Notes under the pieces: generated by a model
What the model was told of the DNA's origin: nothing
Databases searched by the model: none
What the model saw: the letters and a program-made list of their open reading frames with translations, nothing else
Origin: a virus
Lineage: Duplodnaviria; Heunggongvirae; Uroviricota; Caudoviricetes
DNA: 16,684 nt
Strand: one strand, 5' to 3'
IMG/VR virus record: IMGVR_UViG_2526164618_000010
Position numbers and translations under genes: made by a program
Shown here: positions 3,882-5,430 of the stretch, piece after piece
Layout: each line of letters opens with the position of its first letter
How positions within the stretch are numbered: position 1 is the stretch's first letter

Positions 3882-4103
3882 GTCACCGCGATTATCTCCG
3901 CTCTGGTTATCTGCATCATCGTCTGCCTGTCATGGGCTGTTAATCATTACCGTGATAACGCCATTACCTACAAAGAGCAGCGCGACAAAAACGCAAGAGA
4001 ACTGAAGCTGGCGAACGCAACCATTACTGACATGCAGCAGCGCCAGCGTGCTGCTGATGCACTCGATGCTAAATACACGACGGAGTTAGCCAATGCGAAA
4101 TGA
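3882..4103 (+). pseudogene. rz: Rz (i-spanin) fragment, truncated at both ends by IS2 and IS911
   Basis: [55 protein letters not shown]…[13 protein letters not shown] matches the lambda Rz N-terminal region from memory. The first codons are replaced by the IS2 end and the stop TGA is the first three bases of IS911. Confidence 0.8.
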
Positions 4104-4108
4104 AGTGG

Positions 4109-4948
4109 TCAACAAAAACTGGCCACCGAGTTAGAGTTTTTCCAGTATCGATTTTCCGATTCGTTTGGGGGTAACCCACCGTTATATTCGTGCGGTCTTA
4201 GTGCACTGTAATATCCAACGATATAGTCCGTTATGGCGTGAGCTGCCTCGCTGAAGCTTACGTAACCCACCACCGGCATCCATTCGTTCTTCAGACTCCT
4301 GAAGAAGCGTTCCATTGGGCTGTTATCCCAGCAGTTTCCGCGCCGGCTCATACTCTGTCTGATCTGGTATCGCCACAATAACTGCCGGAACTGCCTGCTC
4401 GTATAATGACTGCCCTGATCGCTGTGGAACATCACCCCGCCGGGCTTACCACGGGTTTCCCATGCCATTTCCAGCGCTTTCATGGTGAGCCTGCTGTCCG
4501 GCGAGAACGACATGGCCCAGCCCACTGGTTTTCTTGCGAACAGGTCGAGAACAACGGCGAGGTACGCCCAGCGCTTACCCGTCCAGATATAGGTCACATC
4601 ACCGCACCACACCTGATTTGGCTCGGTCACGGCGAACTGCCTTTCAAGGTAGTTAGGGATAGCAACATGTTCATGACCACCACGTTTATACCGGTGAGTC
4701 GGCTGCTGACAGCTGACCAGCCCCAGCTCTTTCATGAGCCTGCCAGCAAGCCAGCGTCCCATCTGGTAGCCTCTCCGGGTTGCCATTGTGGCGATGCTTC
4801 TTGCTCCGGCCGAACCGTGGCTGATGCCATGTAGCTCAAGTACCTGACTGCGTAATACAGCCCGTCTGCCGTCTGGTTTTTCAGGACGGTTTTTCCAGTA
4901 TCTGTAGCTGCTGCGATGAACCCCGAACACATGGCAGAGTGTGACCAC
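4109..4948 (-). CDS. IS911 orfB (DDE transposase catalytic domain); frame blocked upstream by TAA at 5024-5026
   Basis: ORF track 279 aa with IS3-family motifs (…[11 protein letters not shown]…[10 protein letters not shown]…). The track start at 4948 is a GTG codon; normal expression would need fusion to orfA by -1 frameshifting. Confidence 0.8.
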
Positions 4949-5003
4949 AGGATAATGCGCTCTGAGTTTCCCGATTATCGAGAACTGTTCAGGGAGTCTG
5001 ACA

Positions 5004-5276
5004 TCAAGAGCGCGGTAGCCTTTTTAATATTCCATTCTCCATTCCAATGCGTTGTAGCTTTTTCCTGAGCTCACGGATTTCAATTTGTTCCGGGGTAATG
5101 GGGGAGGCTTTTGGTGTTTTGCCCTGACGCTCATCACGCAGTTGTTTGACCCATCTTGTCATTGTGGAAAGGCCAACATCCATAGCTTTGGCGGCATCTG
5201 CCACCGTGTATTTCTGGTCAACAACCAGTTGAGCGGATTCGCGTTTAAACTCTGCGCTAAAATTTCTTTTTTTCAT
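5004..5276 (-). CDS. IS911 orfA (HTH protein), C-terminus altered (…[12 protein letters not shown])
   Basis: ATG at 5274-5276 gives [11 protein letters not shown]… The ORF ends prematurely relative to the remembered wild-type OrfA tail (…[18 protein letters not shown]) because the A-run at 5021-5025 is five rather than six bases. Confidence 0.8.
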
Positions 5277-5430
5277 TGGAGCACCTGTGTTGTTCTGAGG
5301 TGAGCATATCACCTCTGTTCAGGTGGCCAAATTCAGTGTGCCACTTCAGGGTCCATCCCTCTTCTCCCTGCGCGCTACTTAAGTGAGTCGATTCTATCTG
5401 CGAAGGTGCGCGAATCAAATTCACCGGAAA

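Follow-up and report, generated by a model that had tools for sequence, protein, structure and literature searches.

IS911 is one of five insertion sequences (ISs) that have expanded in all Shigella species (PMC7373316). Its published frameshift cassette (PMC8136817, Table 1) reads GAAATGGAGAATGAAATATTAAAAAAGGCTACCGCGC... and contains ...GAAATATTAAAAAAGGCTACC..., with a run of six adenines (A6) at the slippery site; an upstream Shine-Dalgarno (SD) sequence and a downstream stem-loop act as stimulators, and -1 frameshifting amounts to about 12-13% (PMC8136817). A long-known IS911 relic in Escherichia coli K-12 carries five adenines (A5) at this place.

The stretch of DNA analysed here, hereafter the window, is the whole contig AFHA01000024.1 (16,684 bp) of the 2011 draft assembly GCA_000213435.2 of Shigella flexneri K-671. 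A first-pass annotation, made from the letters of the window, had placed an IS911 copy at 4101-5348, and the comparison with public genomes bears this out: the element, 1248 bp on the minus strand, shows 98.9% identity along 1248 bp with E. coli copies that bear the annotation "IS3-like element IS911 family transposase". On the plus strand, TGAAGTGGTCAAC starts at 4101 and GTGCCACTTCA finishes at 5348; both termini read TGAAGTGG..., so that the element begins with 5'-TG and ends with CA-3'. As in IS911, an orfA with a helix-turn-helix (HTH) domain precedes an orfB with a DDE (rve) domain: PF01527 was found on the 90-aa product, and PF00665 and PF13683 on the 279-aa product of the longest ORF call (4109-4948) in the orfB frame, which extends without interruption from 5023 to its stop at 4109-4111. 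The hok/sok locus lies some 210 bp to the right of the element. An Rfam scan of positions 3500-6500 returned sok only, and no catalogued frameshift element. The window element is an ordinary member of the IS911 population expanded in Shigella, at a chromosomal site that is conserved among S. flexneri strains. The coordinates of its parts and direct neighbours are collected in Table 1.

Table 1. Features of the IS911 copy and its surroundings in the window (AFHA01000024.1).
Feature	Coordinates	Strand	Remarks
IS911 copy, S. flexneri allele	4101..5348	-	1248 bp
IRL, outer 24 nt, ending ...TTCA / TGAA...	5325..5348	-	exact match to the IRL string of all retrieved copies
IRR, outer 27 nt	4101..4127	-	exact match to the IRR string of all retrieved copies
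orfA as deposited, 90 aa, HTH_Tnp_1	5004..5276	-	ATG at 5276, stop at 5004-5006; aberrant tail ...ILKRLPRS before the stop; wild type 100 aa
orfB frame, rve DDE domain, intact	4109..5023	-	closed upstream by TAA at 5024-5026
Slippery heptamer remnant, AAAAAG instead of A_AAA_AAG	5020..5025	-	A5; T5 on the plus strand at 5021-5025
Private A>G, E82G in OrfA	5032	-	7 nt upstream of the A-run
Private A>G, E78G in OrfA	5044	-	19 bp upstream of the A-run
Internal Shine-Dalgarno-like GGAG, upstream frameshift stimulator, unchanged	5037..5040	-	sequence; cassette in PMC8136817
72 nt downstream of the A-run, stimulatory stem-loop region	4949..5020	-	same as the published cassette by sequence
Rz (Phage_lysis) fragment, 82 aa, stop codon from the IS911 end	3855..4103	+	Pfam hit; left junction, AAA at 4098-4100
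Right junction, IS911 IRL abuts GGGTCCATCCC	5348..5349	.	2,633 bp absent compared with the L019/L020 arrangement
hok toxin CDS, intact	5559-5771	-	Hok family match
sok antisense RNA, intact	5709-5884	-	Rfam RF01794, 117 bits

In the deposited sequence, the slippery region reads ...GGAATATTAAAAAGGCTACC... on the IS strand, and the A5 run occupies IS positions 324-328. The first-pass annotation had noticed this shortened run, had given A6 as the wild type and had proposed an alignment to the reference and other copies; the published reference cassette indeed has A6, not A5, as do 6,951 places in E. coli genomes (see below). The early end of orfA and the TAA that closes the orfB frame, both described there, were read correctly as well, while the two A>G changes just upstream (T>C on the plus strand) had been missed. 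A5 puts orfB at +1 instead of -1 relative to orfA, and because of this a -1 shift at A_AAA_AAG cannot fuse the two frames; furthermore, the AUU start codon of OrfB is moved out of the orfB frame and into the third frame. The claim that this copy cannot make OrfAB by programmed frameshifting is thus right for the sequence as it reads, but the lesion on which it depends is itself doubtful. The deposited copy lacks what characterises IS911 at this place, an orfB in the -1 frame with A_AAA_AAG in the overlap; the record is probably wrong here, since the orthologous copies carry A6.

Were A5 real, the copy would specify a 90-aa OrfA that has the changes E78G and E82G and ends in five foreign residues, RLPRS, and would produce neither OrfAB by a -1 shift nor OrfB. 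With its ends intact, it would be mobile only with OrfAB supplied in trans, and inefficiently so because the IS911 transposase prefers to act in cis (approximately 200-fold; PMC5009743); it would share this state with the K-12-type relic.

We surveyed the length of the A-run in 5,426 complete E. coli genomes with 48-49-nt queries, each 28-mer seed spanning the full run. A6 was found at 6,951 places in 3,045 genomes; a single genome has as many as 23, and 1,074 of the places are on plasmids. A5 occurs in 1,487 genomes at 1,528 places, the median being one copy per genome, and plasmids account for just six of these places; the contrast in copy number is consistent with immobile A5 copies. In E. 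coli, A5 goes back essentially to a single old insertion, which adjoins an MFS-transporter fragment (junction present in 1,438 genomes) and lies next to the gene for surface adhesin E as well, e.g., in loci L002 (NZ_AP023230.2) and L029. This insertion is the IS911 relic of K-12, further cut by IS30 just after the A-run (L029, NZ_CP025268.1 4509112-4509369). A5 is seen as well in a 93%-identical relative that occupies a different locus (L015-L018). The transition from A6 to A5 is a common and already catalogued mode of IS911 death, and the lesion in the window is not new even if real.

A 32-nt stretch, ATATTAAAAAGGCTACCGCGCTCTTGATGTC, is shared exactly between A5 IS911 and Pseudomonas bohemica (NZ_NKHL01000079.1; L028 4838-4869). 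It lies in a decayed, truncated orfA of the IS3 family with an in-frame TAG and with no further nucleotide similarity to IS911. This was the sole match of a generic A5 30-mer among the GTDB representatives and, being a decayed fragment, it was rejected as evidence of a functional A5.

The NCBI pipeline labels uninterrupted A5 copies as a joined "programmed frameshift" CDS, even though a -1 shift cannot fuse their frames. Such copies, in the window as well as at the K-12-type locus, could in principle still yield a little OrfAB by a second, cryptic recoding route, i.e., a +1 slip of Lys-tRNA on A_AAA_A at a rare codon. Frame 0 reads UUA AAA AGG, where AGG is a rare Arg codon, and the GGC UAC... 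that follows the slip is in the orfB frame; by frame arithmetic, the product would be of 388 aa, that is, OrfAB minus one Lys and, in the window copy, plus the two Gly changes. An AAA AGG sequence from pspD was included when the FSscan study (PMC2790909) assayed constructs for +1 frameshifting in E. coli; it was the only instance that our literature search on +1 frameshifting at AAA AGG returned, and no efficiency was found in the text. The NCBI label agrees with such a route, but it is made by similarity and holds no evidence of function, and A5 in E. coli is essentially limited to one chromosomal copy per genome at one locus, the opposite of what an active element would give. We therefore consider residual synthesis of transposase by a +1 slip extremely improbable.

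The window locus with both its junctions occurs in none of the complete E. coli genomes, which points to Shigella. The 82-aa protein that runs over the junction between the Rz fragment (Rz') and IS911, and is specific to this left junction, is present in 245 blocks of the sequence collection, many complete S. flexneri genomes among them; the 90-aa OrfA is on record from AFHA01000024.1 only (protein EGJ93120.1). Four orthologous loci with the arrangement of the window were retrieved from complete S. flexneri genomes: L005 (WACK01000005.1), L007 (NXMF01000001.1), L011 (CP012137.1) and L025 (CP189683.1). All four show the order Rz'-IS911-GGGTCCATCCC-hok-QueH and share with the window both junctions and the neighbours (ISSfl3, an IS2 fragment, Rz', hok/sok and QueH). 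Unlike the window copy, however, their IS911 is 1249 bp long, has A6 within an exact match to the published 98-nt cassette and encodes a 100-aa OrfA and an annotated 389-aa OrfAB. A6 was likewise found in all of the 20 IS911 copies in the retrieved Shigella loci. Between the K-671 copy and its orthologues, three of 1249 positions differ (99.8% identity): the shortened run itself (5020-5026) and the substitutions at 5032 and 5044. All three are located within 25 bp, and there are none in the remaining 1.2 kb.

A diverged IS911-like paralogue elsewhere in the K-671 genome, with GGAAT...GGAATATTAAAAAGG, might have donated such a 25-bp patch as a short gene-conversion tract, or its reads might have been mixed up with those of the window copy. 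S. flexneri harbours many IS911 copies (PMC7373316), and exchange between IS911 alleles has evidently occurred: at IS positions 246-282 (window 5067-5103), most S. flexneri copies differ from those of E. coli by nine substitutions, the majority of them at every third base, and this patch looks like an old recombination between IS911 alleles. The donor required for the private patch was nevertheless absent from every collection searched. A 126-nt query found at best 96.8% in the 5,426 E. coli genomes; the variant 22-mer had no full match in these genomes and none in the GTDB representatives, an A6 OrfA with both Gly changes was not found in the protein collection, and none of the 20 Shigella copies has the patch. 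The scan of metagenomes with the 22-mer gave a single match (L027), which was rejected as a donor, as it lies in an unrelated gene and is a chance match. Conversion or mix-up with a paralogue is, on this evidence, quite improbable.

The copies differ in other respects too. At IS positions 246-282, the window copy has the S. flexneri type, and L008 and L014 have the E. coli-type bases. Outside this interval, we observed scattered single-site differences, each in one or a few copies, plus an allele-wide difference at IS position 1144. The IS911 in L010 (S. flexneri CP000266.1) has an extra G at alignment column 720 and measures 1250 bp, as compared to 1249 bp in the other copies. The length usually quoted for IS911 is 1250 bp, and the extra G may be connected with this figure.

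The remainder of the contig bears directly on whether the deletion is real. We compared window positions 871-16,684 (15.8 kb) with three to four complete genomes and counted every position at which the window stood alone. The 18 such private differences comprise 11 in ISSfl3, three in IS911, one in IS2, two in IS600 copies and one in unique DNA. Hence, IS copies, at 45% of the compared length, contain 17 of the 18 (binomial P = 1.3e-5), and the density of private changes in repeats is about 20 times that in unique DNA. Eight of the private differences are indels, all of a single A or T, gained or lost, and seven of these break the tnpA and tnpC genes of ISSfl3, which are intact (224 and 533 aa) in four complete genomes. 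Unique DNA in the contig has one private difference in 8.7 kb, and the data are hence not bad overall.

ISSfl3, an element of the IS66 family, occupies window positions 871-3600, and its 11 private differences include single-A indels at 1284, 1335, 2319, 2332, 3327, 3347 and 3377. The idea that these variants represent a plasmid allele was rejected, as neither E. coli nor pINV-type copies of ISSfl3 have them. To the left of this element, window positions 1-870 match, at 99.7% identity, the flank of ospC4 in virulence plasmids of the pINV type, where that flank adjoins an ISSfl3 copy. In complete S. flexneri genomes, an MFS transporter gene, and not the ospC4 flank, is situated to the left of the chromosomal ISSfl3 copy, which puts the join in the window at about position 871. 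This join reflects either integration of pINV or, more simply, a misassembly threaded through the repeat.

Because the private changes cluster in IS repeats and because the contig joins its flanks through a repeat, we take A5 as a likely error: it appears moderately probable that A5 and the two A>G changes, together, are consensus errors (of sequencing or assembly) in the 2011 draft. The alternative, in which strain K-671 alone truly has the three changes and this copy is a non-autonomous IS911, we hold to be possible but doubtful. It takes the sequence as deposited and is compatible with the intact terminal repeats, and the same lesion is certainly fixed in nature in about a quarter of the E. 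coli genomes surveyed, where low-copy A5 stands against multi-copy A6. It does not explain, however, why three changes should fall in 25 bp with none elsewhere in the element, nor why they occur in no other assembly when the Rz'::IS911 junction is so widespread. Above all, point mutation does not predict the roughly 20-fold enrichment of private changes in repeats, whereas a poorly supported repeat consensus does, which favours the error. Against an error speak three facts: natural transitions from A6 to A5 do exist (the K-12-type relic, L015-L018 and the decayed Pseudomonas fragment), the two neighbouring changes are substitutions rather than the classic homopolymer miscall, and the unique DNA of the contig is very accurate. 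A literature search for strain K-671 and its sequencing method produced nothing useful. If the deposited A5 is indeed a consensus error, the actual K-671 copy would have A6 as in its orthologues, OrfA would be made, and OrfAB would arise by -1 frameshifting on A_AAA_AAG.

A further irregularity in the contig has a different cause. A DnaC-like prophage replication gene is split into two ORFs on the minus strand of the window (7627-7980 and 8032-8373). It is a real pseudogene and not a contig error, because L020 has the same split (108 + 113 aa); the gene is intact (248 aa) in L023, L024 and L026.

The ends of the element have a history of their own. The 3-bp direct target repeats of IS911 are missing, with AAA (4098-4100) on one side and GGG (5349-5351) on the other; the first-pass annotation had described these flanks, had deduced from them a rearrangement at the ends of the element and had seen that IS911 links an Rz fragment to the hok region. 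The 82-aa Rz piece and the Hok and sok matches agree with this, and the rearrangement is real and common to several strains. Beyond the Rz' junction and the element, three right-hand contexts are found. In the first (AAAGCTGAAAAT; L010, L013 and L014), the sequence goes on into Rz1, and the element is flanked as AAA-IS911-AAA; this is the original insertion of IS911 in Rz, with its AAA/AAA duplication. The second context (CACCAATATACG; L006, L008, L009, L019 and L020) lies inside a DUF1133 late gene, and the third (GGGTCCATCCC) is that of the window, L005, L007, L011, L012 and L025.

In L019 and L020, the distance rightwards from the IS911 end to the GGGTCC with which the third context is recognised is 2,633 bp, a stretch that takes in DUF1133, YbcO, IS600, DUF1367 and Rem. 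As these two loci keep the 2,633 bp in between, the arrangement in the window corresponds to the second context after a deletion from the exact left end of IS911. In prophages without IS911 (L023, L024 and L026), GGGTCC is contiguous with ...CCCCTGTTCG, the sequence TTCG/GGGTCC being uninterrupted. We considered recombination between two IS911 copies as the origin of the hok junction and rejected it, given the uninterrupted TTCG/GGGTCC in the latter prophages and the 2,633 bp retained in L019 and L020.

The site thus took shape in three steps. IS911 entered the Rz lysis gene of a lambdoid prophage, creating the 3-bp AAA duplication. Later rearrangements set the Rz' end beside the late region of a Rac/Qin-like prophage. 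Finally, a deletion of 2.6 kb from the exact left end of IS911 brought hok/sok adjacent to the element. The missing target duplication is explained by this last step, because the IS911-adjacent deletion replaced the right flank.

Public genomes document the element and its site as well as this kind of lesion and this kind of rearrangement, and nothing here is outside known biology. If A5 is real, K-671 has added a dead copy to the many IS911 elements that S. flexneri carries, with a lesion as in the K-12 relic. More generally, the repeat interiors of old draft assemblies carry single-nucleotide homopolymer errors, by gain or loss, that mimic mutations of recoding sites. The ends of the site, for their part, illustrate neatly the way in which IS911 remodels prophages in Shigella.

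The three known systems to which this locus can be compared each match it in part. The K-12-type relic has the same A6-to-A5 lesion and the same OrfA tail, ...ILKRLPRS before the stop, but it sits at another insertion site and represents another allele, which has neither the S. flexneri patch nor the two G changes; fixed and vertically inherited, it is certainly real, whereas the window lesion is private to a single draft. What defines that relic (A5, an OrfA ending in this tail and an uncoupled orfB) is all seen in the deposited window sequence, where the evidence leans towards an artefact. IS-mediated adjacent deletion is an established behaviour of transposable elements, and the right junction conforms to its outcome, which is all that is seen here: one IS end is kept, 2,633 bp are lost from the exact terminus, and there is no duplication. 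With regard to the reference IS911 (IS3 family; Polard et al. 1991), the window copy differs by A5 instead of A6, by two A>G changes just upstream and by the absence of a 3-bp duplication, but it is alike in its terminal repeats, in the layout of orfA (HTH) and orfB (DDE), in the GGAG and in the 72-nt downstream stimulator.
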